Below are positions 1,822 to 29,167 of a stretch of 32,000 nucleotides of DNA, in pieces (within the stretch, counting starts at the first letter, position 1; each line of letters opens with the position of its first letter). The stretch is from Methanothermus fervidus DSM 2088 (GTDB lineage: Archaea; Methanobacteriota; Methanobacteria; DSM-2088; Methanothermaceae). The stretch lies in contig CP002278.1 in NCBI GenBank assembly GCA_000166095.1, positions 990,001 to 1,022,000 of the forward strand, written 5' to 3'. A program made the translations under genes and the position numbers. Below the pieces are notes generated by a model, which did no database searches, was not told the DNA's origin, and was given only the letters and a program-made list of their open reading frames with translations.

Positions 1822-3105
1822 TTATATTCTCTTAGCTAAAAACCTTAATAACTTATAAACAGAATCTGTAGAGGGATGAACTTCTATAAAATTGTCAAAA
1901 TCCTGAACTTTACTTCCAAGCCTCAATAAATGGGAAAGGTATGCTACATAATCTCTACCAATAGGTGATACTGCATATACTCGAGATATTTCTCCAGTAT
2001 TTAAATCTACAGAAACTTTACTTAACCCTGTATTTTTGTTTAAAACTTCCCAGAAGGATCCTGGACCAGCTGGTCCAGGCATTTTAGCATTTACAAGTTT
2101 TTTATTTTTATTTTCATCTATAAATGCTACATCATATTTGAGAGATATTGAGTTGGGTATATAATCATATCTCATCCTTGTTTCAATTCCAGCTGCATTT
2201 CTTGCAGCTACTATACCTTCCATCCTTGCAACAGGCGTATTTTTAGCTCTATTAGTTACAGCTCCAGCTGCATAAACATTTTTCATGCTTGTTTCCATTT
2301 TTTCATTGACTATTATATGTTCTTTAGAATCTTTTTTGACATTGACAATTTTTGAGTTAGGTGTTACGCCTGTAGCCAAAAATGTTTTACCTTCTATTTT
2401 TCCTTTGCTAGTTTCAATATATTCCTCACCTATTTTTAAGGTTTTTGTATTTTCATAAATTTTTACGTCATCTAAAAGCTTTTCAACCACATATTTTTTA
2501 ATTTCAGGGTCTAAATTTTTTAAAAATTTACTCCTGCAAATCACGTTAACTTTGCATCCAAACCTAGAAAAAATATAAGCAAATTCTGATGCAGTATGTC
2601 CTCCACCCACAATATTTATAACTTCTGGGAGTTCATCAATTTCAAGGACATCTCTGTAAGTTATTGCATTTTCAACGCCATCTATTGGAGGTATATGTGG
2701 TTTTATTCCAGTTGCAACTATCAATTTATCATAACTTATTTTTTCTCCATCTACTTGTACTTTGTCTTCAATAACTTTTGCTTCGCCATATATAATTTCT
2801 ACACCAGATTCTTTAGTTTCCTTCTCATTTATCTTCCTAATTGTCTTAATTGTCTTTTTTAATTTCTTCAATAGATGTTTGTATTTTATTTCACACTCAA
2901 AATCAATTATTCCATGATTTTTTAAATTTTTGGCGTTATCTATGAAACGTGCAATGTCATTTAAGCCACATACAACCATACATCCCTCATTTAGGCATGT
3001 ACCACCCATATATTTTTTTTCAATCAATAAGGTTTCCTTGTTAAGCGCTGCTAACTCCATTGCTGCAAATCTTCCTGCTGGTCCTCCTCCAATTATTACA
3101 TACAA
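1822..3105 (-). CDS. FAD-dependent pyridine nucleotide-disulfide oxidoreductase (class I, dihydrolipoamide dehydrogenase/glutathione reductase-like)
   Basis: The N-terminus VIIGGGPAGRFAA is a Rossmann GxGxxG. GGTCLNEGCMVVC is the redox-active CxxxxC. A second dinucleotide fold is INIVGGGHTASEFA. The C-terminal HPSTDS resembles the HPTxSE dimer-interface motif. Confidence 0.8.
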   Translation of the reverse strand: MYVIIGGGPAGRFAAMELAALNKETLLIEKKYMGGTCLNEGCMVVCGLNDIARFIDNAKNLKNHGIIDFECEIKYKHLLKKLKKTIKTIRKINEKETKESGVEIIYGEAKVIEDKVQVDGEKISYDKLIVATGIKPHIPPIDGVENAITYRDVLEIDELPEVINIVGGGHTASEFAYIFSRFGCKVNVICRSKFLKNLDPEIKKYVVEKLLDDVKIYENTKTLKIGEEYIETSKGKIEGKTFLATGVTPNSKIVNVKKDSKEHIIVNEKMETSMKNVYAAGAVTNRAKNTPVARMEGIVAARNAAGIETRMRYDYIPNSISLKYDVAFIDENKNKKLVNAKMPGPAGPGSFWEVLNKNTGLSKVSVDLNTGEISRVYAVSPIGRDYVAYLSHLLRLGSKVQDFDNFIEVHPSTDSVYKLLRFLAKRI

Positions 3106-3182: not shown

Positions 3183-3422
3183 ATGTGTATTGCGGCCCCT
3201 GCTAAAATTGTTGATATCAATAAAAATAAAAAGATGGCAACTGTTGATTTTGGCGGTGTAAAACAAAAAATAAGGATAGATCTAGTTGAAGATGAAGTAG
3301 ATATTGGAACTTATGTTCTAGTACATTCAGGATATGCCATTGAAGTTATGTCTGAAAAAGCTGCCAAAGAGTCACTTGAAGTATGGGAAGAAATGATGCA
3401 TCAACTTAATTCTAAAGAATAA
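3183..3422 (+). CDS. hypC: Hydrogenase assembly chaperone HypC/HupF
   Basis: 79 aa. The N-terminal MCIAAPAKIV (the essential Cys2 motif MC[IL]xxP) is followed by the typical GDYVLVHxGxAI-like segment (GTYVLVHSGYAI). Confidence 0.9.
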   Translation: MCIAAPAKIVDINKNKKMATVDFGGVKQKIRIDLVEDEVDIGTYVLVHSGYAIEVMSEKAAKESLEVWEEMMHQLNSKE

Positions 3423-3649: not shown

Positions 3650-4171
3650 ATGTTAGAAAAACATGGCATTATTGATGAATTACTAGAGGATCTAAGTGAA
3701 GAAGAAAAGAAAAATAGCTTATTAATAATAAAATGTTTGGAAAATGGCTTAACAACAGACGAGGAAATTGCAGAGAACATTGACATCAAGTTAAACAAAG
3801 TGCGAAAAATTCTTTACATGCTTTATGATAGAGGAATAGTTAGTTACAGACGTAGTAAGGATCCAAAAACACAATGGTACAGATATAGTTGGAAATTTGA
3901 GCCAGAGAAATTAGAAAGAATTATAAAAAGAAAGCATGAGAAAATTGTAAGAAGCCTTGAAAAAACATTAGAATTTGAGAAAAATAACATATTTTTTGAA
4001 TGTGAGAATGGAGATTTCAGATGTACTTTTGAAGAAGCAATGGAATATAATTTCCACTGTCCAAAATGTAATTCAAAGTTAGAATATATTGACAACTCTG
4101 AAATCATCAATGAAATCGAAAGAAAAATAAATTTTTACAGGAACAACGGGTCAAATAATGTCGAAGAATAA
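3650..4171 (+). CDS. tfe: Transcription factor E, alpha subunit (TFE, archaeal TFIIE-alpha homologue)
   Basis: A winged-helix N-terminal region (TDEEIAENIDIKLNKVRKILYMLYDRGIVSYRR...QWYRYSWKF) is followed by a Zn-ribbon-like CxxxxxxC...CPKC. The size of 173 aa is typical. Confidence 0.85.
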   Translation: MLEKHGIIDELLEDLSEEEKKNSLLIIKCLENGLTTDEEIAENIDIKLNKVRKILYMLYDRGIVSYRRSKDPKTQWYRYSWKFEPEKLERIIKRKHEKIVRSLEKTLEFEKNNIFFECENGDFRCTFEEAMEYNFHCPKCNSKLEYIDNSEIINEIERKINFYRNNGSNNVEE

Positions 4172-4664
4172 ATCTAAGATTTTTAAATTATACAAAGAAG
4201 TAAATTTACCAGAAAATGTAATTGAGCATTGTAAAGTCGTAGCTGAAAGGGCTCTTGAACTTTCAACAAGATTTAATAATGTAGATAGAGAGTTAGTATT
4301 GAGTGGTGCCCTATTACATGATATAGGTAGATCAAAAACACATGGAATTGACCATGGGATAGTAGGTGCTAAAATATTGCGAAAAAAAGGTTATCCTGAA
4401 GAGATTATTAGAATTGTTGAAAGACATATAGGTGCGGGTATACCTAAAAATGAAGCTATAAAACTTGGATTACCTCCTAAAGATTACATTCCAGAAACTC
4501 TTGAAGAAAAAATAGTTGCTCATGCAGATAATTTGGTTAATGGCAACAAAAAGGTAGATATTCATTATGTTTTAAAAAAATGGGAATCTAAATTTGGGAG
4601 AGATCATCCCGCAATAAAAAGATTAAAAAAATTACATAAAGAATTAACTGGTGAGGATGTTTAA
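4158..4664 (+). CDS. HD-domain metal-dependent phosphohydrolase (HDIG-type)
   Basis: Contains LLHDIGR, ERHIGAG and VAHADNL (the H...HD...H...D pattern). It overlaps the tfe stop by 14 nt, suggesting an operon. Confidence 0.75.
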   Translation: MSKNKSKIFKLYKEVNLPENVIEHCKVVAERALELSTRFNNVDRELVLSGALLHDIGRSKTHGIDHGIVGAKILRKKGYPEEIIRIVERHIGAGIPKNEAIKLGLPPKDYIPETLEEKIVAHADNLVNGNKKVDIHYVLKKWESKFGRDHPAIKRLKKLHKELTGEDV

Positions 4665-5582
4665 TTATTTTTTTAACCGTCTAATTTTCACAGCCACTCC
4701 ATAATCAGCTTTTACCATTTCATTTCCACTTAAGACGGCTTTTCCCACACCTACAATATCTCCTTTGTAAGTTACAATCACTTCATCTCTTGGTACTATT
4801 GACTCATCTGCTTCTATAACGCCTGGAGCAAATATTTTATTTGTTTTGGGTTTGAAATCAATTTCTACCTGTTTTGTTCCCAATTCTAGCAATCTTTTTC
4901 CACCTTCTAATGTAAGATTATATAATCCAAAATTCTTAGACAAAGTACAAATATGGTTTCTATTTTCATCTAGTATGATTTTATTTCTCCTACCTCTAAC
5001 TCTACAATTTTCTGGTATTAAAATCTCAGCTCCTTTTCCAAATTGATATATAGCTATAGATTTGAGTTTATGTAACAATAATTTTTTACGTGGAATTTTC
5101 TCATATTTAGACAATTCTGTTCTCAAATTATTCATCGATTCTTTAGATATAGGTGACTTATCTTCACAGGTGAATATACATTCATCTAAATACTCTTCAC
5201 ATACTTCTTTATATCCGCCTACAACATGTGCAATTACTTTTTTGTCTCCCACATATTTTTTTAATAATTCTCCAACAACCTTTTTCTCCTCGAAATACCA
5301 TTCCCCTGTGGTTGAAACATCATAAGCACGTATAGGATATGTTTCTTCCATTTCTCTTGGACAAATTCCAAAAGGAGATGTTAATATAAGCTCTTGATAA
5401 CCTTTAGTTACTCTTCTAAAAATTTGATGACTTAATGATCTCGAATATGGTTTTGTAGCACTACATGGCAATATAACTATTGGTTCATCAATTGGTTTTA
5501 ATAATTCCATTCTTTTTCTCCATCTTATAGCCTCAGGCCTATAAAGTGATTCTTCTATACTACATAAAATCAAATTCAACAC
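4665..5582 (-). CDS. DUF5591 plus C-terminal PUA-domain protein. It resembles the C-terminal half of archaeosine synthase ArcS and lacks the TGT-like catalytic half.
   Basis: VILPCSATKPYSRS matches the LLPCSxxKPY motif of the ArcS/DUF5591 region. The C-terminal APGVIEADESIVPRDEVIVTYKGDIVGVGKAVLSGNEM is PUA-like. It overlaps the upstream gene by 7 nt. Confidence 0.55.
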   Translation of the reverse strand: MLNLILCSIEESLYRPEAIRWRKRMELLKPIDEPIVILPCSATKPYSRSLSHQIFRRVTKGYQELILTSPFGICPREMEETYPIRAYDVSTTGEWYFEEKKVVGELLKKYVGDKKVIAHVVGGYKEVCEEYLDECIFTCEDKSPISKESMNNLRTELSKYEKIPRKKLLLHKLKSIAIYQFGKGAEILIPENCRVRGRRNKIILDENRNHICTLSKNFGLYNLTLEGGKRLLELGTKQVEIDFKPKTNKIFAPGVIEADESIVPRDEVIVTYKGDIVGVGKAVLSGNEMVKADYGVAVKIRRLKK

Positions 5583-6421
5583 CTTTCATTTACTTTCCTA
5601 ATAATAATTGCTGGTACATGTTTTATCGTGTTAAGCATCTTTATATCCACATTTTCTCTTCCAAAAAATTCTTCCATGTCATAAACAGTTTCAAATGTGT
5701 TGAATTTCTCTTGGATTTTTTCAGCTATTTTTGAAATTTTAATTAGTTTAGTTACAGGTAATTCTTTAGAGGAAGCTATTGGTGTAGGTCCTATCTTTTT
5801 CCCAAACCTTCCAAGTAAATAAGCTAAAAACCCTAAATTGGATTTTATGCCTCTAACAGCTATAGGTAACGATGTTATTAATTTTCCAAAAACTTTGTAT
5901 GTTGCATCAGTGTCAACGATTACAACAGTGACTTTTTTATTCCATCTCTCTAAAATTTCTTTAGAAATATATTTTGCAATATTCTTTGGATTTTTTGGTA
6001 AAGGTGCTACATAAGTGTCTGGAACATTGCTTAGATCAACTCCTGCTTCAGAACTTGGTTTTAATGCATGTAACCACCCATAATGTCTTAAAATAAATTC
6101 TTTAAGGTTTCTAGCTTCTGGTGGTAGTTTCCTCAAATTTTTTATGGTTCTAGATTTTATCCTAAATATCGGACCAAGAAAATACCCCCACAAAAATTTT
6201 GACCAAATTTCGGCAAGAAATATTGCACTTAAGGAAGGTTTATACTTCAAAATATCATAAATTCTTCCTTGAGCAATTGCAATCGGAGTCTCAGAAATTA
6301 CTAAAAAATCGTTGTTCTTAAGCAATGGTCCAGCACGCCTGATTATTACCTCAAAACCTTCGTTTGGCTTAATGTATCTAGTTTTCACAGGTATTGCTTC
6401 ATATTTCATAAGGGTCTCCAA
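5576..6421 (-). CDS. F420-0:gamma-glutamyl ligase (CofE) family protein, a divergent paralogue of unknown substrate
   Basis: [49 protein letters not shown] aligns with the CofE core as I recall it (NAGIDASNV...LLPP.DPD.SA..LR..I....G..VGVIITDT.GR). The N-terminal [17 protein letters not shown] resembles GDVLVV..K.VSKAEGR, and the C-terminal VPAIIIRK resembles IPAVVVRG. Confidence 0.75.
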
Positions 6422-7047
6422 ACCTTTAGATCAATGCTTTCTATTTTTGCTTTTCTACCTTCCATTTCTACAACTACTCCACTATGTACTTTTTGCATCA
6501 TACAATGCTTTGGTATAAATCTAACGGTTTTGCCAACTTTTGGTATTTTTCCATTAACTCTTCCTATAAACCCAAGCACTAAACACAAACCAATATCTTT
6601 AAATTTAAAATTTTTATCTCCTAAACGATGTTTAGGTCCAACTATATGTACAGTGATTAAGCCATTTTCTTCTTTTAATATCTCAGCAAAATGTGTAATT
6701 GGACATCCAAGAGGTCTATACCTTATAATATCTCCTTCTTTTAATTTTACATCAGAAAATGGATATAAAATTTCTCTACAAGATTTTTCGTTTTTCAAAG
6801 GTTCTAAAACAAAATCAGCCGTATAATTATCTATTAACCCAACTATTTCTTTTTCTATTTCTGGTTTTTCCTCAACTAATTTTTTTAGTTCATGTAATTT
6901 GTCTGTATCCAAAAAACGACATCTTTGAATGTCTAACCCCTGTTTGATCACTGCTTTTGCAAAATCTTCACATCTCTGAAATCCACATATCCCACAATTG
7001 TATCCTGGAAGAAGATTTACAATTTCTTCTAATTTTCTTGTTCCCAT
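6406..7047 (-). CDS. Fe-S cluster-binding protein with an RnfB-type N-terminal Cys motif. The C-terminal domain is uncharacterised.
   Basis: [21 protein letters not shown] is the CxxCxxxxC pattern of the putative Fe-S domain found at the RnfB N-terminus, followed by an additional QRCRF. The remaining roughly 160 aa have no motif I recognise. Confidence 0.5.
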
Positions 7048-7049
7048 GT

Positions 7050-7760
7050 TTATTCTCCCTCATATCTTTGGAAACCATCGATATTACGTAATACTCCACG
7101 ATGATATTTTTTTCCAATTCTTCTTTCACCAACGCAAAGTGTGCAAATAGCTAATGGAGCTGAGTATCTTAATTTTTCATTTTTTAACGATAAATCCTTT
7201 GTTTTTGTAATTTCAAATGCTAATTTTGCACATCCCTGTCCACTCAACCCATTAGCTTCAATTATTTTTGATTCTGGATTAACCTCAATTATCCTCTCTC
7301 TAAAAATCTCTCTTTCTGCCTGTGAAATTAAATCTCCTTTAGTTATCACAACAATGTCTGCAGTTGATAAAAAAGGACCTACTTTTAGTGGTGTATTTGG
7401 ACCTTGAGTAGCATCTATTACACAAACTCCCAAACAATTTTGAGTATATGGAGCACATCGATGACATAAACCAGCAGTCTCAACTATTAATAAATCAGAT
7501 TCATTTTCTCTTGCCCAATGAATCATTTCTTCAATATTAAAAATTGTAAAGTGATCTGGACACATGTCCATAGCAAGTCCTAGTTTTGTTGGAATATCTA
7601 ACTTCTTAAAAACTTTATCATCTTCGCTATGGAGACAATCTACCTTTACTACAGCAGGATTATATCCATTGTCTTTGAGAATTTTTAGAGTATGTGTTAA
7701 TATTGCTGTTTTCCCAGCCCCAGGAGTTCCAGCAACTATTACTAATTTCATTTTTATCAC
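7050..7760 (-). CDS. G3E-family P-loop NTPase (HypB/UreG/CobW-like) with extra Cys/His motifs
   Basis: The Walker A is [24 protein letters not shown] is positionally equivalent to HypB ENVGNLVCPA. The NKxD-like element is ITKGDL. A Cys-rich C-terminus reads [17 protein letters not shown]. The likely start is a few codons in (MKLVIV, around 7751). Confidence 0.7.
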
Positions 7761-8518
7761 ATTGGAACATTTTCTATTTTTTTACCTAGACGCACTTTTT
7801 CTCTTAAGTCCAGGAGTAATTCATCTATTTCATTCAATTTTTGAGAGATATTTTTTTCTTCTTTAGTTGTTTTGATAATTTTCTGCATCCCACCGTTTTT
7901 CATTACAATTCTTTTATCTGTGTTTAAAACCAATGTGGGATCATGTGTTACTATAAATATTATTTTTCCATGCTTAGTTAACACATTTAAAGCTTCATGT
8001 TTTTTAATACCTGCATTTTCAATTTCATCTATTACAACGATTGGAGATTTACTTATCAATGCAATATCAGCTACCATCAGGGCTCTAGATTGACCTCCAC
8101 TCAAAATTGTTAATTTATCTGTTTTTTTAATTGGTTCTCCAGTAAGTTTATTTGCAAGGTCTATAACTTCATCTACACGTTTTTCATCTACATTTCTACA
8201 TTTAGCATGTAATTTCAAAAATTCCTCCACACTCATGTCAGCCAAAAAATTCATGTGCTGTGATAGATGTGCAACTAATTTTTTCTTTGGATTTACACGA
8301 TACTCATAACTAGGCTTTTTATCATTCACTAAAATTTTTCTTTTTGAGAATGTATCTCCTTGTGCCAATTGTTCAATATCATAAATTAATGAGCTTTTTC
8401 CACTACCTGTTGGACCTACCACACCTACAATTTCTCCTTTTTTTACTTTAACTTTCCTAACAGGTTCTTTTTCACCAAATTTATCATATCCACCAATTAT
8501 TGTCAATGAATTTATCAT
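7757..8518 (-). CDS. Single-domain ABC-type ATPase with no cognate permease in the window
   Basis: The Walker A is GPTGSGKSS, the signature is LSGGQSRAL, the Walker B is VVIDEIEN and the H-loop is VTHD. It has 4-nt ATGA-type overlaps with both neighbours. Confidence 0.85.
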
Positions 8519-9294
8519 TCTAGCTTCACCTTCCCTATTGTATCTCCTCTAAGACCTCTCCTTATAGTTTCAACTGCAATTATGTCTTCTGGTGGAATAT
8601 TACCCAGATTTACATTTGGACCAAGCCTTATAATGAAATATGTTTGTTGATCTTTTTGTGGAGCTTCCCATATCACTTTTTTAACAGGTAATTTTGAAAT
8701 TAAATATTCTACTTCGCTCTTTTTCACATTTCCATTTTGATCATAAACACCTACATTTCTTCCACTTTCTCTAGCTTCAATTGTGACCATTTCTACTCCA
8801 GAATTTAGATCATGTTTTGCAATTTTCACTCTTTTTTCAGGTGTGAGTTTTTTATCAATTTCTGGATTTTTTTTACCAATTTCAGAAATTACTTTAAATC
8901 CTTCATCTATAGCATTTTCTATAATTTCAGATCTTTCATCTAAAGATAAATTTATACTTCCATCAGATATTTCAATAAATTCAAATCCTAAATCTTTTGC
9001 TTCCTCAAAATACTTATCTAATTTATTTTTTAAATATGCAACCTCAAACAATGTTCCACCAGGCATGACTTTTACATCATATGAATTGTAGATCTCTATT
9101 TTTTCTTTAATCAAATCACGATCACATAAAGTTGTAGTACACCATCCAAACTTTACAAAATCTACATATTCACTTCCAATTTCCATGAGATCTTTAACTG
9201 TCTCAGCTCCAATGCCTTTATCCAGCATTACAGTTATACCAAAATTTCTAGGCTTTTCTTGTCTTTTTGGTCTCAAAAATTCAAATGCTTTCAT
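8515..9294 (-). CDS. comA: (2R)-phospho-3-sulfolactate synthase ComA (first step of coenzyme M biosynthesis)
   Basis: MKAFEFL...GITVMLDKG...[12 protein letters not shown]...[13 protein letters not shown]...[12 protein letters not shown]...IIEARESG...[12 protein letters not shown]...G.NVNLGNI...[11 protein letters not shown] matches my recollection of the characterised ComA family (M. jannaschii MJ0255). The start was set at the ATG at 9294, preceded by the SD GGGGTGA (9299-9305), rather than the track's 9330. Confidence 0.9.
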
Positions 9295-9298
9295 GCGC

Positions 9299-9305
9299 TC
9301 ACCCC
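9299..9305 (-). promoter_or_regulatory. Shine-Dalgarno site of comA (GGGGTGA)
   Basis: Plus strand tcacccc, 4 nt upstream of the ATG at 9294 on the minus strand. Confidence 0.6.
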
Positions 9306-9403
9306 TTGAACATGAGTATTTTTTGAACATGGATACTTAAAAAATTAATTAATAAAAAATATTAACTAATTAATACAAAATTCGAAAAAAATAATGAGAT
9401 AAT

Positions 9404-10615
9404 TTACCAAATATCCACAGTTTTATCCTTATTTGTAAACCTAGTTACATGTTTAAATACAGATTTTGGAGCTATGTATTTACATATTTCCACTATTTGT
9501 GGGTTACAACCTTCAATACAATATTTTAACTGTAACTTAAGAAGTTTGTGATACCTCATAAAATTTGTAAAAATGAGAGTTGTACTTACTGCATATGTAT
9601 TTGGGTATTTACCTAAATTTAATGTTATTTCTTCACCAGGATCCAAAACTAGCGAATATTCTTTGTAAAATACTTTATTTCCTTTAACACTATCAGTGTA
9701 AATACTTACATAATATGAAATCTTTACAAAGCTGTTTCCTAAATTCTTTATTGTTATATTATAGAGATAAGGTGCAAAAAAATCAGGGTCTATCATACTA
9801 TACCTAAATATAGCAAATCCACTGGCACCATTCTCCAATGCAGCCCTGATATCTTGGACTAGTTCACTTGCTGGCAACTTAACAGGATTTTTATCTGATC
9901 TATATGCAAGTATTCCTGTGACAACTGGCTTTAATGAATGCTCAACAACATATCTAGTTACTTTCCCTATCCACTCAGTTGTTTCATTGTAGTTACCTTT
10001 GTAAGCCATTGGAACAATGAAGTCTAGATATCTTGACATATTTGTGTAATCTTGGCCATATATATAGTTAGCCCACATTTCTGGCATAACTGCTGCTGAA
10101 ACTAATGCATTTGGCTTTATCTTCTTCACTGATTCATATACATACTTAACTATATCTGCTATTATATCTGTACCATTCTTTGGTGCATTTCCTGGATATC
10201 TTATGTAATCTAGGTGTATTCCATCAACGTTGTATTCCTTTATATACTTAGTTGCCTTCTGAACTAGCACATCTTTGATTTCAGGGTGCTTAACTGGGTC
10301 TATCCATGTATTGTTTTGCCTTAAGCACATTATCCATGCATGGACTCTTATATTTTCATTCTTGGCCTTGTTTATGAATTCTTTTGTGGAGTTTTGAAGT
10401 GTTGGATCCTCAAAAGCCCTTTGAAATAAAAAAATATTAGTTATATCTCTACTTTTTAAATAACTAAAACTCACATTGTCCATTTCTGTGGACCAAACCC
10501 AAACACCATTTAAAGATGTAGAAGAAATATTTTGAGCATGAACACAATCTAAATTTAAAATTAAAGCTAAGCTAATGCTAATCAATATTAAAGCCATAGG
10601 AATGTGAGAATTCAC
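9404..10615 (-). CDS. Secreted glycoside-hydrolase-like TIM-barrel protein (GHL10/DUF4015-like) with a 119-aa C-terminal domain shared with the large surface protein
   Basis: The N-terminal signal-like segment is MALILISISLALILNLDCVHA. DGIHLDYIRYPGN resembles the D-Y-I-R-[FY]-P motif of the glycosyl-hydrolase-like TIM-barrel families. The C-terminal 119 aa (9404-9763) align gaplessly with the C-terminus of the 26249-29167 product. Confidence 0.55.
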   Translation of the reverse strand: MNSHIPMALILISISLALILNLDCVHAQNISSTSLNGVWVWSTEMDNVSFSYLKSRDITNIFLFQRAFEDPTLQNSTKEFINKAKNENIRVHAWIMCLRQNNTWIDPVKHPEIKDVLVQKATKYIKEYNVDGIHLDYIRYPGNAPKNGTDIIADIVKYVYESVKKIKPNALVSAAVMPEMWANYIYGQDYTNMSRYLDFIVPMAYKGNYNETTEWIGKVTRYVVEHSLKPVVTGILAYRSDKNPVKLPASELVQDIRAALENGASGFAIFRYSMIDPDFFAPYLYNITIKNLGNSFVKISYYVSIYTDSVKGNKVFYKEYSLVLDPGEEITLNLGKYPNTYAVSTTLIFTNFMRYHKLLKLQLKYCIEGCNPQIVEICKYIAPKSVFKHVTRFTNKDKTVDIW

Positions 10616-13336: not shown

Positions 13337-13372
13337 TGAAAAATTCAAAGGTAAATTATAGCTAAGAAGAAT

Positions 13373-13445
13373 GCCGCCGTAGCTCAGTAGGTAGAGCGCT
13401 CGGCTGTTAACCGAGTGGTCGCAGGTTCGAGTCCTGCCGGCGGCG
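13373..13445 (+). tRNA. tRNA-Asn (GTT)
   Basis: Manual cloverleaf: acceptor GCCGCCG/CGGCGGC, anticodon arm CTCGG-CTGTTAA-CCGAG, T arm GCAGG-TTCGAGT-CCTGC, discriminator G. No encoded CCA. Confidence 0.93.
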
Positions 13446-13452
13446 TTATTTT

Positions 13453-13526
<74 letters not shown>

Positions 13527-13539
13527 TTTTTTTCCTAAT

Positions 13540-13614
13540 GCTCCGGTGGTGTAGCCCGGCCAATCATTTCGGCCTTTCGAGCCGAAGACTCGGGTTCAAA
13601 TCCCGACCGGAGCA
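13540..13614 (+). tRNA. tRNA-Glu (TTC)
   Basis: Acceptor GCTCCGG/CCGGAGC, anticodon arm TCGGC-CTTTCGA-GCCGA, T arm TCGGG-TTCAAAT-CCCGA. Confidence 0.92.
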
Positions 13615-13637
13615 TAATTTTTTTATTTTTATTCATA

Positions 13638-13721
13638 GCGGGGGTGCCCGAGTGGTCAAAGGGGACAGGCTTAGGACCTGTTGGCGTTAGGCCTTCCAGG
13701 GTTCGAATCCCTGCCCCCGCA
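13638..13721 (+). tRNA. tRNA-Leu (TAG), class II with a long variable arm
   Basis: Acceptor GCGGGGG/CCCCCGC, anticodon arm ACAGG-CTTAGGA-CCTGT, variable arm TGGCGTTAGGCCTTC, T arm CAGGG-TTCGAAT-CCCTG. Confidence 0.92.
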
Positions 13722-13737
13722 TGTAAGAAATCACAAT

Positions 13738-13811
13738 GGCCGGGGTGGGGTAGTTGGCCATCCTTCGGGACTGTGGATCCCGCGACTCGGGTTCAAATCC
13801 CGGCCCTGGCC
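13738..13811 (+). tRNA. tRNA-His (GTG) with a genomically encoded G-1
   Basis: Acceptor G(-1)+GCCGGGG/CCCTGGC+C73, so G-1 can pair with C73. Anticodon arm CGGGA-CTGTGGA-TCCCG, T arm TCGGG-TTCAAAT-CCCGG. Confidence 0.92.
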
Positions 13812-13846
13812 TTATTTTCATCCTTTAAAACTAATTTTGTGGTATA

Positions 13847-20060: not shown

Positions 20061-20786
20061 TTAGCTCCAAGAAAGTAATTTATCTGAAATAAATTCTGGA
20101 GGTACTGGATTTATATAAGCAAAAATTAAAATTAAAGTTAAAGAAAGGAATACAACCAATAAAATAAGTTTGTCCTCTCTATATGGGTATATTTTATAAA
20201 TCAGCATGCAAAATAGGAAAAACAAAACAATTATGGCTAAAGAATAATTTTTATTTGGATTTTCCACTTTTATTTTTTCTAAAGGTAATATCTTAACAAT
20301 CTTACATTCAACTATTAACCTTTTACTTGTTGAACCAAAAGGATAGCAAGTAACAAGTAACAATTTATTGCCTTGACGCAAAGGTATTTCATAGTCTGCA
20401 GGAACTACAAATGATTTATCAACTTTATATTCAATTTTTCCAACTTTTGGCCAATTAACATATACTACATCGCCTTTTTTCAATTTATCTAAATTCATAA
20501 ATGGAGATCCATAAAGCGTTCTATGTCCAAAGAGGACTGTAGTTCCAGACCCAGGAATGGACGATCTAGGATCATAGTATACACCATAAGATAGTGATTT
20601 GTTGTTAATTTCTTCTTTTAAGTTTATTGCAGGTATCTCTAAGGTGGCTGTGTATTTATTCTCTATAGTTATCTTTGAGGCATAATAACTTACCTCAATA
20701 AGTGCATAAAGAAAAATTATAAAAACTCCAACAATGATCATAACTGTAGATAATTTTACTTTCACATTTCCGCCCCCAGTACACAT
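20061..20786 (-). CDS. Sortase-family transpeptidase-like membrane protein
   Basis: TVLFGHRTLYGSPFMNLDKLKKGDVVYV is the sortase His motif with the downstream L..L..GD. LLLVTCYPFGS is the TLxTC-like catalytic Cys motif. SKRLIVECK supplies the conserved Arg. There is one N-terminal and two C-terminal hydrophobic helices. The longest ORF starts at a TTG (20864), but the ATG at 20786 is favoured. Confidence 0.7.
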   Translation of the reverse strand: MCTGGGNVKVKLSTVMIIVGVFIIFLYALIEVSYYASKITIENKYTATLEIPAINLKEEINNKSLSYGVYYDPRSSIPGSGTTVLFGHRTLYGSPFMNLDKLKKGDVVYVNWPKVGKIEYKVDKSFVVPADYEIPLRQGNKLLLVTCYPFGSTSKRLIVECKIVKILPLEKIKVENPNKNYSLAIIVLFFLFCMLIYKIYPYREDKLILLVVFLSLTLILIFAYINPVPPEFISDKLLSWS

Positions 20787-20817
20787 TGATATCTCTCTAC
20801 TATCTAAAAAAATTAAC

Positions 20818-20822
20818 GAGGT
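20818..20822 (+). promoter_or_regulatory. Shine-Dalgarno site (GAGGT) for the GT2 gene starting at the GTG at 20830
   Basis: GAGGT lies 7 nt upstream of the in-frame GTG. That GTG precedes KKNIIIIPAYNEE, the usual N-terminus of GT2 enzymes. Confidence 0.6.
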
Positions 20823-20829
20823 AAAAAAC

Positions 20830-21485
<656 letters not shown>

Positions 21486-21507
<22 letters not shown>

Positions 21508-26248: not shown

Positions 26249-29167
26249 TTACCAGATGTCTACTGTACCATTCTTGTTTGTGAATCTTGTTGTGTCTTTA
26301 ATTGTTGTTCTTGGTGGTATGTCTTTGGATATTATTTTGACTTGTGATGCACAACCTTCAATGTTGTATTTTGCATATAAATCAACTGACATGTAGTTTC
26401 TTCCTGTGTTTGTGAATACTGCTGTTGTTGATACTGCGTAGGTGTCTGGATATTTACCTAGATCTATTGTTGTTTCTTGTCCAGCATTCAATGTTATTGT
26501 TAATTCCTTGTAGTATACTTTAGTTCCATTAACTGGATTTGTGTAAACTGATATGTAGTATTTGAATGTTATTGTTGATGTTCCTGTATTTCTTAATATT
26601 ATTGAGAATGTCTTATTCTGGACTACAGGAGTTGGCGTTGGTACAACTGGTGTTGTTACATTCACTGTAACTGGTGTTAAGTTTCCTATTGTAACGTTGT
26701 AGGTTCCAGCTTGTGTTAAGGTGTAAGATAGGCTTACAGTTGTTGAGTTTCCTGGACCTACTGTTACTGTTGTTTGATTTACAGCATTGTTATTCACATA
26801 TAATGTTGCTGTGTAGTTTCCAGCTGTTCCTCCAGTGTTTGTAACTTTTGCTGTTGCAGTTATTGTTAGTGGTGCAACTCCAGATGTTGGAGTGACTGTT
26901 AAGTTGCTTAGTGTGAAGTTTGCTGGTGTTGTTACAGTTACTGTAACTGGTGGTAAGACATCTGTTACATTTGTTCCTATTGTAACGTTGTAGGTTCCTG
27001 CTTGTGTTAAGGTGTAAGTGAATGTTATTGGAACTGTTGTATTATTTCCAACTGTTAATGCCCGGCTTGCAACTGCAGCACCATTCACATATAATGTTGC
27101 TGTCACATTAACAGGTGTTGAGTATTTGTTTGTGAAGTTTGCTGTTGCTGTAATGTTTAATGGTGCAACTCCAGATGTTGGTGTAACTACTAAGTTGCTT
27201 AGGACATAGTTTGGATCGTAGACTTTAACTGTTACATTTGATGTTGGTAATATTGTTGTAACATTTGTACCCATCATTATTGTATGAGTTCCTACACCTA
27301 AGTTTGGATAGTTGAATGTTATTGGAAGTGTTGAATTTGCAGGAACTGTAATTGTTTGATTTGCAACTGCTGAACCATCAATGTAGAGTATAGCTGTCAC
27401 ATTAACAGGTGTTGAGTATTTGTTTGTGAAGTTTGCTGTTGCTGTAATGTTTAATGGTGCAACTCCAGATGTTGGTGTAACTACTAAGTTGCTTAGGACA
27501 TAGTTTGGATCGTAGACTGTTATATTCATTGTTTTATTCTGTATCATGTTTAGATTGTTATCTAACAATGTAACATTTAATGTGTAAGTACCTGGTGATT
27601 GTATGTATGGGTAGAAGTAATATGTAATTGTTTGTGGTGTTGGTGCATTTATATTCACTGTTGTATTTGCATTATATACTACATTAGTTGCATTAATAGT
27701 AACATTTAGATATCCTGTGAAGTTAGCACTTGTCACAGGAACTGCCACTGTAATTTGTCCAGGATATATTGTTGTTGGTGATACAGTGATGTCACCAAGT
27801 GCAACCATACCTACAGTTACTGGTACAATATTAGTTGTGCAGTTCCAAGGTTGACCAGCTATTGTTGCATTAACATATACATATATGTTGTAAGTTCCTG
27901 TTTGGTTTAATGTGTAAGTGAATGTTATTGGAAGTGTTGAATTTGCAGGAACTGTAATTGTTTGATTTGCAACAGGAGTACCGTTTACATTTAAGAATGC
28001 TGTGTAATTCCAGGCTAGACCACCAGTGTTTGTGATGTTACATGTTGCAGTTATTGTTAGTGGTGCAATTCCAGATGTTGGAGTGACTGTTAAGTTGCTT
28101 AAGGTAGCATATGGTGGATTTAAAACTGTGACTGTAACGGTGTTACCCTTCACAACTGTTGTACCATTTGTTGCCCAGACACTTACTGTATGATTACCTA
28201 CTTCTGAGAATTGATATGTTTGATTGTATGTCCATATTACTCCAGCAGTACTACAACCTTGTTGGAAAGCAGTTCCCCATAATGCATTACCGTCATACAC
28301 TAAAGTAGCATTTTTAGTGTCAGTTAGATCATTTGTTATAGTTGCACTGATGGTACATGTTGTATTCTTAAATACTGTAATAGTTGTGTTTGAACTTGTT
28401 GGCTGTCCTGTTTGAAGATTTGGAGCGGTAACTGTTACATTATAAACTTTTGTAGGTGGTGCACTTACAGTTACTGTCACATTATTGGTTGTGTAGGTGT
28501 AAGTTATACCAACTATTGTTGTAGTGACAGTTATATTTATGTTGTTAGTTCCTATTTGGCTTAATTGGTTTAATGTGTAAGTGAATGTTATTGGAAGTGT
28601 TGAATTTGCAGGAACTGTAATTGTTTGATTTGCAACAGGAGTACCGTTTACATTTAAGAATGCTGTGTAATTCCAGGCTAGACCACCAGTGTTTGTGATG
28701 TTACATGTTGCAGTTATTGTTAGTGGTGCAATTCCAGATGTTGGAGTGACTGTTAAGTTGCTTAAGGTAGCATATGGTGGATCTACAACTGTAACATTAA
28801 CGATGTTACCATATACGGTGTTTGTACTATTTGTTGCCATCACAGTTACTGTATGATTACCTGTTTGTGTGAATGTATAGTTATTGTATGTGTATGTGTA
28901 TGGGTATGTAGTAATGTTAGTTACAGTAGTAGTATTAACTGGACTATTATCCACTACTAAAGTAGCATTTGATACTTCATTTACTGTAGTATTTGTTATA
29001 GTTGCACTAATATTACATGGTGTATTCTTAAATACTGTAATACTTGTGTTTGAACTTGTTGGCTGTCCTGTTTGAAGATTTGGAGCGGCAACTGTTACAT
29101 TACTAACATTTACAGCAGAAGCTACGCCTGCTAGCGCAAATACTGCCAGCACCATTGCCAGCAGCAT
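26249..29167 (-). CDS. Large secreted surface (S-layer/adhesin-like) glycoprotein with repeated CARDB-like beta-sandwich domains, a Pro/Thr linker and a conserved C-terminal domain
   Basis: The signal peptide is MLLAMVLAVFALAGVASA. There are at least 5 copies of LSNL[TV]VTPTSG[IV]APL.ITAT...TN...Y.A.L.VNG..VANQTITVPANSTLPITF (CARDB-like). The linker is TTPVVPTPTPVV. I counted about 68 N-x-S/T sequons by hand. There is no C-terminal TM, LPXTG or PGF-CTERM. Confidence 0.8.
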   Translation of the reverse strand: MLLAMVLAVFALAGVASAVNVSNVTVAAPNLQTGQPTSSNTSITVFKNTPCNISATITNTTVNEVSNATLVVDNSPVNTTTVTNITTYPYTYTYNNYTFTQTGNHTVTVMATNSTNTVYGNIVNVTVVDPPYATLSNLTVTPTSGIAPLTITATCNITNTGGLAWNYTAFLNVNGTPVANQTITVPANSTLPITFTYTLNQLSQIGTNNINITVTTTIVGITYTYTTNNVTVTVSAPPTKVYNVTVTAPNLQTGQPTSSNTTITVFKNTTCTISATITNDLTDTKNATLVYDGNALWGTAFQQGCSTAGVIWTYNQTYQFSEVGNHTVSVWATNGTTVVKGNTVTVTVLNPPYATLSNLTVTPTSGIAPLTITATCNITNTGGLAWNYTAFLNVNGTPVANQTITVPANSTLPITFTYTLNQTGTYNIYVYVNATIAGQPWNCTTNIVPVTVGMVALGDITVSPTTIYPGQITVAVPVTSANFTGYLNVTINATNVVYNANTTVNINAPTPQTITYYFYPYIQSPGTYTLNVTLLDNNLNMIQNKTMNITVYDPNYVLSNLVVTPTSGVAPLNITATANFTNKYSTPVNVTAILYIDGSAVANQTITVPANSTLPITFNYPNLGVGTHTIMMGTNVTTILPTSNVTVKVYDPNYVLSNLVVTPTSGVAPLNITATANFTNKYSTPVNVTATLYVNGAAVASRALTVGNNTTVPITFTYTLTQAGTYNVTIGTNVTDVLPPVTVTVTTPANFTLSNLTVTPTSGVAPLTITATAKVTNTGGTAGNYTATLYVNNNAVNQTTVTVGPGNSTTVSLSYTLTQAGTYNVTIGNLTPVTVNVTTPVVPTPTPVVQNKTFSIILRNTGTSTITFKYYISVYTNPVNGTKVYYKELTITLNAGQETTIDLGKYPDTYAVSTTAVFTNTGRNYMSVDLYAKYNIEGCASQVKIISKDIPPRTTIKDTTRFTNKNGTVDIW
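27099..27224. repeat. 126-bp perfect intragenic direct repeat, copy A (partner 27393-27518)
   Basis: Compared base by base: gctgtcacattaacagg...ggatcgtagact is identical in both copies, at an offset of 294 bp (98 codons, one domain). Confidence 0.95.
27393..27518. repeat. 126-bp perfect intragenic direct repeat, copy B (partner 27099-27224)
   Basis: See copy A. Both encode VYDPNYVLSNLVVTPTSGVAPLNITATANFTNKYSTPVNVTA. Confidence 0.95.
27902..28119. repeat. 218-bp perfect intragenic direct repeat, copy A (partner 28565-28782)
   Basis: Compared base by base: ttggtttaatgtgtaagtgaatg...catatggtggat is identical, at an offset of 663 bp (221 codons, a two-domain unit). Confidence 0.95.
28565..28782. 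repeat. 218-bp perfect intragenic direct repeat, copy B (partner 27902-28119)
   Basis: See copy A. Both encode PPYATLSNLTVTPTSGIAPLTITATCNITNTGGLAWNYTAFLNVNGTPVANQTITVPANSTLPITFTYTLNQ. Confidence 0.95.

Follow-up and report, generated by a model that had tools for sequence, protein, structure and literature searches.

The DNA analysed here is a 32,000-nt window of the genome of Methanothermus fervidus DSM 2088, to which all coordinates of the cluster given below refer. From 4665 to 9330 its minus strand carries six consecutive open reading frames (ORFs) encoding, in the order of reading, ComA, an ABC-type ATPase, a G3E P-loop GTPase, a small Fe-S protein, a CofE-like protein and a short ArcS-like protein. 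A previous description made from the letters alone (the sequence-only reading) had taken the six products for one stoichiometric machine linked to coenzyme M (CoM) synthesis. Comparison with other genomes indicated instead that the functional unit is comA together with a conserved three-gene module formed by the ABC-type ATPase, the G3E GTPase and the Fe-S protein, hereafter the trio, which may supply sulfite to the synthases encoded beside it.

When the junctions were read base by base, the six ORFs were present where they had been placed, the earlier family labels of all six products held in Pfam and curated family scans, and no transmembrane-like segment was seen in any of the products (0/6), in agreement with the earlier remark that the module has no permease. 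The junctions, originally given as -16 to +2 nt, range from -7 to +5 nt once the starts of comA, the G3E gene and the CofE-like gene had been moved in accordance with orthologue alignments and with the way the genes are called on a contig of 99% identity; the tight packing stays, and the same overlapping or near-overlapping junctions are seen in that twin contig. Near-identical sequences were found in two Logan contigs only, the closest named relatives (Methanothermobacter, Methanobacterium) being ~60% identical. The stoichiometric co-function formerly deduced from the spacing was not borne out, as 13 of the 19 same-strand junctions in the window measure 15 nt or less, including those of plainly unrelated gene pairs. 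Since tight junctions are the norm in this genome, spacing alone says little on shared function and was rejected as evidence for it; the informative signal is the conservation of the neighbourhood in other genomes, not the distance between genes.

The six genes and their products

The first gene, comA (8515..9294), encodes phosphosulfolactate synthase, which uses phosphoenolpyruvate (PEP) and sulfite. Its product matches PF02679 with 328 bits over model positions 1-243 of 243 and passes the TIGR03849 equivalog (344.6 bits, cut-off 280). The longest ORF extends to 9330; the start is most likely the ATG at 9294, as called on the twin contig, which follows a Shine-Dalgarno-like GGGGTGA (9305-9299) and yields a protein of 259 aa. 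Besides this motif, the intergenic leader on the same strand (9295..9403), as read from the sequence, contains an AT-rich stretch with a TATA-like sequence at about 9339-9360 and a run of seven T (9385-9391) immediately behind the stop codon of the GH18-like gene that precedes comA; the leader would presumably harbour a promoter and a terminator.

An orphan single-cassette ABC-type ATPase of 253 aa (PF00005, 58 bits) is encoded by the first gene of the trio (7757..8518), whose start overlaps the comA stop in an ATGA (8515-8518). Walker A, the Q-loop LSQ, the signature LSGGQSR, Walker B IDEIENAG and the H-loop VTHDP are all present, and the catalytic motifs are kept across archaea and bacteria in an alignment of 15 orthologues. 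The protein is without a transmembrane segment and its nearest sequence relatives are transporter ATPases; no cognate permease or binding protein adjoins it in those subfamily A and B loci of the module (see below) that were annotated or screened by tblastn, ~90 in all. The SufC model was not among its 25 best NCBIfam matches (147 families matched), and an identity as SufC or as component A2 of methyl-coenzyme M reductase (MCR) activation was unsupported by the family scans.

The G3E P-loop GTPase (HypB/UreG-like) is the product of the second trio gene (7050..7751). Its longest ORF reaches 7760, every orthologue begins with MKLV, and the start is most likely the ATG at 7751; with the start at this position the junction with the ABC gene would be a 5-nt gap and not a 4-nt overlap. 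The protein passes the superfamily domain only (PF02492, 56.5 bits against 20.7) and stays below the cut-offs of the named subfamilies (HypB, 54 against 121; UreG, 36 against 204; CobW, 18 against 332), HypB and UreG being the nearest of them and also the best relatives in the PDB. The P-loop, Walker B, the guanine motif and the Cys/His metal motif of the superfamily are present and GTP use is predicted, the guanine motif TKGD being variable (NKGD in Methanopyrus). The sequence DMCPDH aligns to the metal-binding CPH motif of UreG, and the residues invariant in all subfamilies are GKT, DxCPDH, E(T/S)AGLCxRC, SQAE(R/K)E and a C-terminal CxxC...H...GE.

The third trio gene (6406..7047), separated from the G3E gene by 2 nt (7047/7050), encodes the Fe-S protein of 213 aa. 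PF04060 (46.5 bits, residues 13-45) covers its N-terminal part with four Cys that are kept across all three subfamilies, and it is the only match, since the RnfB models gave 33 bits against cut-offs of 69-445. The C-terminal part is an all-beta domain in which C115, H119, C182 and H188 are universal in the three subfamilies, together with further invariant Arg, Lys, Gly and Pro positions; subfamily A proteins have three additional Cys/His residues. Modelling of the full length gave a predicted local distance difference test score (pLDDT) of 78.6, and the C-terminal domain (pLDDT 87.7, predicted template modelling score 0.83) is predicted to form two small beta barrels, for which no fold match below E = 0.05 was found in the PDB. 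Neither a NIR_SIR siroheme domain nor a PAPS-reductase fold was detected by Pfam or NCBIfam in any trio protein.

Because its C-terminal domain is unique, the Fe-S protein was used as the anchor for comparative searches. It has 668 word-indexed homologues, and the named ones among the best 120 belong to Methanobacteriaceae and Methanopyrus. Relatives occur in 297 GTDB species, and the family is small, with 19 clusters (50% identity) at E <= 1e-30 among 1.84 billion representatives. In one Methanoregula locus (L092) the Fe-S protein (8001-8861 of that locus) bears a Gly/Arg/His-rich C-terminal extension of ~70 residues, and a stand-alone TOBE (oxyanion-binding) domain protein is encoded 1.3 kb downstream of it (10138-10371).

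The fifth gene of the cluster (5576..6409) encodes a CofE-like paralogue with the F420-ligase fold (PF01996, 89 bits against 25) which fails the CofE equivalogs (55 bits against 181 for TIGR01916 and 274 for PRK13293) and matches the CofE of the PDB over ~75 residues only. Its longest ORF reaches 6421, and the ATG at 6409, most likely the start, gives an ATGA overlap with the Fe-S gene. Among the best 120 homologues the named ones are of Methanobacteriaceae type, with one metagenome-assembled genome labelled Methanomicrobiales. In Methanobacteriaceae it is located downstream of the Fe-S gene at a distance of 50-250 nt, in some cases as much as 5.6 kb, and among the loci examined it was found beside the trio in no lineage outside this family. 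In about 55 loci of Methanobacteriaceae it is followed, without a change of strand, by TFE and HD genes, and these two companions in the synteny block are surely unrelated to it; in the window the TFE-like and HD-domain genes (3650-4664, plus strand) are inverted relative to that order. The CofE-like gene is probably co-transcribed here, outside the conserved trio, and going by the fold our guess is a gamma-glutamyl ligase acting on another methanogen cofactor.

The sixth gene (4665..5582) encodes a short ArcS-like protein (DUF5591, TGT_C2 and PUA). GTG 5582, TTG 5579 and TTG 5573 are its start candidates; the alignment with homologues begins at residue 5, which supports a start in this upstream region. 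The protein fails the equivalog NF040592 (299 bits, cut-off 440), which it matches at model positions 267-574 only; the closest solved protein is AF0587 (PDB 2q07, 6e-41) and the PUA domain scores 51.5 bits. The signature motif of ArcS, PCX3KPYX2SX2H (PMC5699537), is present as PCSATKPYSRSLSH. Compared with full-length ArcS, the sixth gene retains the C-terminal half with the motif and the PUA domain and is without the N-terminal half, so that it resembles the stand-alone AF0587. Judging from these sequence features it is probably an archaeosine tRNA-modification enzyme, its gene being the 3'-terminal passenger of the transcription unit. The stop of this gene abuts that of the HD gene with 0 nt between them, and in relatives 2.7-6.9 kb separate the gene from the trio, or it falls outside the flank; most simply, a local, lineage-specific rearrangement put it between the TFE/HD genes and the CofE-like gene.

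Conserved neighbourhoods of the trio

The window proteins were compared by tblastn with 80 species loci including 10-kb flanks; moreover, a search of representatives and a metagenome scan uncovered a divergent subfamily B. Of ~175 genome and metagenome loci, all that are sufficiently long have the genes for the ABC, G3E and Fe-S proteins next to one another. The link of the five other genes of the cluster to comA, as proposed in the sequence-only reading, therefore stands for these three, which recur in at least five gene orders of CoM or sulfonate clusters, and falls for the CofE-like and ArcS-like genes, whose linkage is lineage-limited and loose.

In Methanobacteriaceae, ComA is encoded immediately upstream of the ABC gene in all 55 loci that could be scored, at a distance that after correction does not exceed 8 nt. 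Between the ABC and G3E genes the gap varies there from 5 nt to 2 kb. A hidden conserved fourth gene in the gaps of 0.1-2 kb was considered and rejected, as these contain unrelated inserts (a TPR protein, a PAS protein, small ORFs).

A second arrangement involves cysteate synthase (CS). Ten Methanolobus species share the order CS-ABC-G3E-FeS-ComD-ComE with overlapping junctions and with MMP16 convergent after ComE. In Methanothrix, CS is upstream of the trio in 4 of 4 loci and ComD-ComE downstream in two of them (L066, L069); of the remaining loci one ends at the contig edge and one is without ComD-ComE within 4.7 kb. These assignments were confirmed with curated models, CS scoring 554-597 bits (cut-off 325) and MMP16 526 bits, and ComD and ComE passing as well. 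Subfamily B displays further orders: one locus (L094) has ABC-G3E-FeS-MMP16-CS-ComDE on one strand, an arrangement that makes up the entire class II CoM operon with the exception of the generic aminotransferase, and 19 metagenome contigs show that order or sub-sets of the trio with MMP16, CS and ComDE. In ANME-1 archaea the trio faces MMP16, and in another locus (L104) the order is ComA-ComB-trio.

The trio is also present in bacteria. Four loci (a 3.2-Mb Spirochaetota contig, L060, L086 and L087) contain ABC-G3E-FeS-CS followed by an acyltransferase similar to AONS and serine palmitoyltransferase. The bacterial CS passes the cysteate-synthase equivalog with 446-515 bits (cut-off 325), and neither ComDE nor MMP16 was found in these four clusters. 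CS and a cysteate fatty acyltransferase catalyse the first two steps in the synthesis of capnine-type sulfonolipids (PMC11211663). In two loci (L079, 13313-17554; L086, 12031-16747) a pst-phoU phosphate-uptake operon comes directly after the trio, CS and the acyltransferase, an adjacency which hints that a putative sulfonolipid replaces phospholipid under phosphate limitation.

Subfamily C, bacterial and the most distant one, comprises 49 contigs. In 22 loci the G3E gene is separated from the Fe-S gene by one for a NifS/IscS-type cysteine desulfurase. A true CysK is encoded within the module or close to it in 5 loci and CysD plus CysN upstream in 2, and Rrf2-family regulators are present near the modules. 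This subfamily places the family in inorganic-sulfur metabolism (cysteine, sulfide, sulfate), with its own sulfur-mobilising enzyme. At a single locus (L139, 8865-10744) genes similar to HdrC and HdrB (CCG-domain) come directly after ABC-G3E-NifS-FeS, recalling the sulfur-oxidising, sulfite-producing sHdr system.

Three taxonomic labels do not fit what their loci contain. L002, labelled Methanomicrobiales, is of Methanobacteriaceae type with the full order from ComA through the trio to the CofE-like gene; L048, labelled Methanosaeta, is a contig end with only the G3E and Fe-S genes, at a Methanobacteriaceae-level identity of 72% and 60%; and L060, one of the bacterial trio-CS clusters, is labelled Anaerofustis. 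These are likely binning or naming errors.

A divergent order is found in L093 (6398-11150), where genes for a YeiH-type membrane protein, the Fe-S protein, a short-chain dehydrogenase/reductase (SDR), the ABC protein and the G3E protein succeed one another inside a nonulosonic-acid sugar cluster (PseG, NeuB). The YeiH-type protein, similar to a 'putative sulfate exporter', is encoded directly upstream of the Fe-S gene. The SDR was tried as a UDP-sulfoquinovose synthase, which would have been a fourth sulfite user, and was rejected (34 bits against 575), being a generic sugar 4,6-dehydratase/epimerase; a sulfo-sugar role for this module is conceivable.

Proposed sulfite supply and competing explanations

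ComA uses PEP and sulfite and CS uses phosphoserine and sulfite; the two enzymes are non-homologous, and with different carbon substrates they have sulfite in common (PMC3087415, PMC12713407). Because they share only sulfite as a substrate, the common feature of the neighbourhoods is sulfite-dependent C-S bond formation, and because the bacterial clusters are without ComDE or MMP16, the association is with the making of sulfonates and not with CoM as such. We infer from this that the trio is a sulfur-trafficking and redox module from which ComA or cysteate synthase would receive sulfite, a proposal to which we assign about an even chance of being right.

This differs from the role first put forward, in the terminal steps of CoM synthesis, which were held to be still incompletely assigned. 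The terminal step has been assigned to MMP16/ComF (PMC12068725), and the presence of the trio beside CS in bacterial clusters points to the first, sulfite-dependent step. Occurrence outside CoM producers thus weakens a CoM-specific role and strengthens one in sulfonate or sulfite metabolism. The source of the sulfite used for CoM in methanogens is unresolved, a reverse-acting small sulfite reductase being the one published proposal that was found (PMC6286981), and growth on sulfate is known for one methanogen only (PMC10322725).

At the level of chemistry our proposal is more tentative. The trio could be a hitherto unrecognised, siroheme-independent system driven by nucleoside triphosphates (NTPs), which in the absence of oxygen makes sulfite by oxidising sulfide or a persulfide derived from cysteine and passes this sulfite to ComA or CS, something we regard as possible, with the balance lying against it. 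The E0' of the sulfite/sulfide couple is ~ -116 mV and, since the oxidation of sulfide with low-potential carriers is uphill, the presence of two NTPases fits a supply of sulfite. The module would most likely make or hand over S(IV) in strict anaerobes that take up sulfide or cysteine. The Fe-S protein would be its redox and catalytic core, with the N-terminal [4Fe-4S]-type domain carrying electrons and the putative 2Cys-2His site of the C-terminal beta domain binding a metal or a sulfur species. The G3E GTPase, with a CPxH like that of UreG and its extra invariant Cys, might load or maintain that site, and the ABC ATPase might provide ATP-driven conformational work or gating. The sulfur input would be sulfide in methanogens and, in subfamily C, persulfide derived from cysteine by the desulfurase of the module. 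The CofE-like and ArcS-like genes would be co-transcribed passengers in a compact genome.

Several observations weigh against sulfite supply. The link to sulfite was drawn solely as the common denominator of the neighbours, the trio resembles no known sulfite-forming or sulfite-reducing enzyme, and the window is devoid of an Hdr-like subunit. In Methanopyrus kandleri and its relatives, as in Methanoregula and three bacterial loci, the trio stands by itself. In Methanosarcina acetivorans the cs-comDE-MMP16 locus is without it (PMC12068725), so the module is dispensable or replaced elsewhere. Finally, the combination of a desulfurase, an ABC ATPase, a Cys-rich protein and Rrf2 regulators in subfamily C looks like Fe-S cluster assembly.

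This last point leads to the main rival of sulfite supply, namely that the trio is a dedicated assembly or maturation system for the metal-sulfur cluster of a pathway metalloenzyme such as MMP16/ComF, with the ABC protein in a SufC-like role, the G3E protein as a metal chaperone and the Fe-S protein as scaffold or carrier. G3E proteins such as UreG, HypB and MeaB are classically metallochaperones encoded beside their targets. MMP16, a metalloprotein, follows or faces the trio in L094, in ANME-1 and in many metagenome contigs, and in subfamily C the NifS/IscS-type desulfurase lies inside the module with IscR/CymR-like Rrf2 regulators adjoining. However, the Methanobacteriaceae tie the trio to ComA only and the four bacterial loci to CS and the acyltransferase, with neither MMP16 nor ComDE nearby; ComA is Mg-dependent and CS dependent on pyridoxal phosphate, so neither needs a metal cluster, and a SufB/SufD or IscU-like scaffold is absent from the window and from the annotated loci. 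Weighing both sides we find cluster assembly rather unlikely. The same neighbourhoods could also be explained if the Fe-S protein were a small siroheme-independent sulfite reductase or detoxifier shielding the cells and MCR from excess sulfite, since adjacency gives no direction; CysD and CysN upstream of subfamily C modules and CysK within or near them would agree with this, and sulfite is toxic to methanogens. The 'toxic intermediates' of the pathway have been mentioned in general terms (PMC10322725). Nevertheless, it would be futile to co-translate a sulfite destroyer with a biosynthetic enzyme that consumes sulfite, the reaction is exergonic and would leave two NTPases unneeded, and most carriers of the trio live on sulfide with no known sulfite input, all of which makes such a reductase improbable.

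Three further explanations were weighed. A general system for the handling of metals (Ni, Co, Zn) or for another cofactor, brought beside CoM and sulfonate genes by historical hitch-hiking, would account for the genomes of Methanopyrus type, Methanoregula and several bacteria in which the trio is alone, for the inserts, as large as 2 kb, that separate the ABC gene from the G3E gene in Methanobacteriaceae, and for the proximity of nikR and hypC in the window and of hycI in the twin contig; but at least five gene orders with two non-homologous sulfite users in two domains would very unlikely arise without selection, and we hold hitch-hiking to be quite improbable. Still less credible, in our opinion, is that the ABC protein is the ATPase of a sulfite, sulfate or sulfonate transporter whose permease is encoded elsewhere, with the other two proteins as regulators or accessories: its closest relatives are indeed transporter ATPases and in one divergent locus (L093) the Fe-S gene is immediately preceded by that of a YeiH-family protein similar to a 'putative sulfate exporter', yet none of the ~90 loci of subfamilies A and B has an adjacent permease or binding protein, the G3E and Fe-S partners are left unexplained, and the ABC protein has just 253 aa. 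Lowest of all we place the original idea of all six products as one ATP/GTP-driven machine for the terminal CoM steps or for another Ni or Fe-S cofactor. The overlapping or near-overlapping junctions of the window and the twin contig speak for it, but such junctions are the rule in this genome, the ArcS-like protein is a tRNA-modification homologue whose gene is non-adjacent in relatives, the CofE-like gene is restricted to Methanobacteriaceae neighbourhoods with variable gaps, the terminal step belongs to MMP16 (PMC12068725), and the trio is found in bacterial clusters without CoM genes; comparative data thus largely contradict it.

The supply of sulfite by the trio, if true, would have consequences beyond this locus. 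All biological methane passes through CoM, whose sulfonate derives from sulfite, and sulfate reduction is beyond most methanogens, which live on sulfide. The trio is embedded in the two CoM pathways known from archaea as well as in bacterial cysteate/sulfonolipid clusters, and it is a concrete candidate for providing that sulfite; it would represent a new kind of sulfur-redox enzyme and close the last open input of CoM biosynthesis, making the pathway complete for engineering and for the design of methane-mitigation inhibitors. It would also mark genomes that make sulfonates anaerobically and explain cysteate-based sulfonolipids in strictly anaerobic bacteria. Should cluster assembly prove to be the correct reading, the trio would stand for a new way of assembling metal-sulfur clusters with the assistance of NTPases, which would still be of interest.

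No publication on the trio was found in searches on the sulfite source, CS, ComA and inferred Methanothermobacter locus tags, most subscription journals being outside their coverage. For these searches ComA was taken to be MTH1674 / MTBMA_c02530, and the neighbouring tags (MTH1670-1673, MTBMA_c025xx) were inferred from it. The parts belong to known superfamilies, while their combination and the link to sulfonate synthesis appear undescribed.

Other features of the window and comparison with known systems

Elsewhere in the window, a 427-aa pyridine-nucleotide-disulfide oxidoreductase is encoded on the minus strand (1822-3105) between the gene of a NikR-type regulator (nikR, 1085-1516) and hypC (3183-3422); its substrate might be a thiol or disulfide cofactor. 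Five tRNA genes (Asn, Met, Glu, Leu, His) lie at 13372-13812 on the plus strand and cause a local GC peak (0.40) in a window of ~30% GC. A sortase-domain ORF (20061-20864, minus strand) and a divergent glycosyltransferase ORF (20734-21507, plus strand) overlap by 131 nt at their 5' ends, so that probably at least one of the start codons is located further downstream. An ORF of 972 aa (26249-29167, minus strand), for which Pfam gave no match, is set among the genes of a large glycosyltransferase cluster and coincides with raised GC (0.33-0.36) and an altered AT skew.

With regard to known systems, the S(IV)-providing role that we propose for the trio would be like that of the APS/PAPS reductases acting downstream of ATP sulfurylase, of reverse-acting Fsr, alSir or Dsr-type enzymes and of sHdr. 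Neither in sequence nor in fold is the trio similar to any of the enzymes of these sulfite routes, as it contains no siroheme domain, PAPS-reductase fold or CCG domain. The first ~45 residues of the Fe-S protein, with their four Cys, match RnfB and the large subunit of the corrinoid iron-sulfur protein, whereas the remainder, a tandem beta domain bearing the 2Cys-2His set, is unrelated to them; the ferredoxin domains, the TIM barrel and the membrane anchor of those proteins are missing.

The ABC protein, in turn, is comparable to SufC and to component A2 (AtwA) in being soluble and free of a permease and in having partners that handle Fe-S clusters or sulfur. It differs from A2 in having a single cassette within its 253 aa, where A2 has two, and neither the SufC nor the A2 model is among its best family matches. 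Subfamily C shares with the SUF and ISC operons a cysteine desulfurase and an Rrf2 regulator; however, SUF has no G3E partner, and homologues of SufB/SufD and IscU are absent from the window and the annotated trio loci.

The GTPase shares with UreG, HypB, MeaB and CobW (COG0523) the PF02492 P-loop fold, with a Cys-Pro-x-His at the position of the UreG CPH. As in the case of other G3E metallochaperones, its gene adjoins one for a possible target, here the small Cys/His-rich protein; in contrast to the pairs UreG-urease and HypB-hydrogenase, there is no urease, hydrogenase or B12 enzyme near the trio. What sets this GTPase apart from those metallochaperones is the presence of extra invariant Cys (GLCxRC and the C-terminal CxxC) and its constant pairing with an ABC protein.

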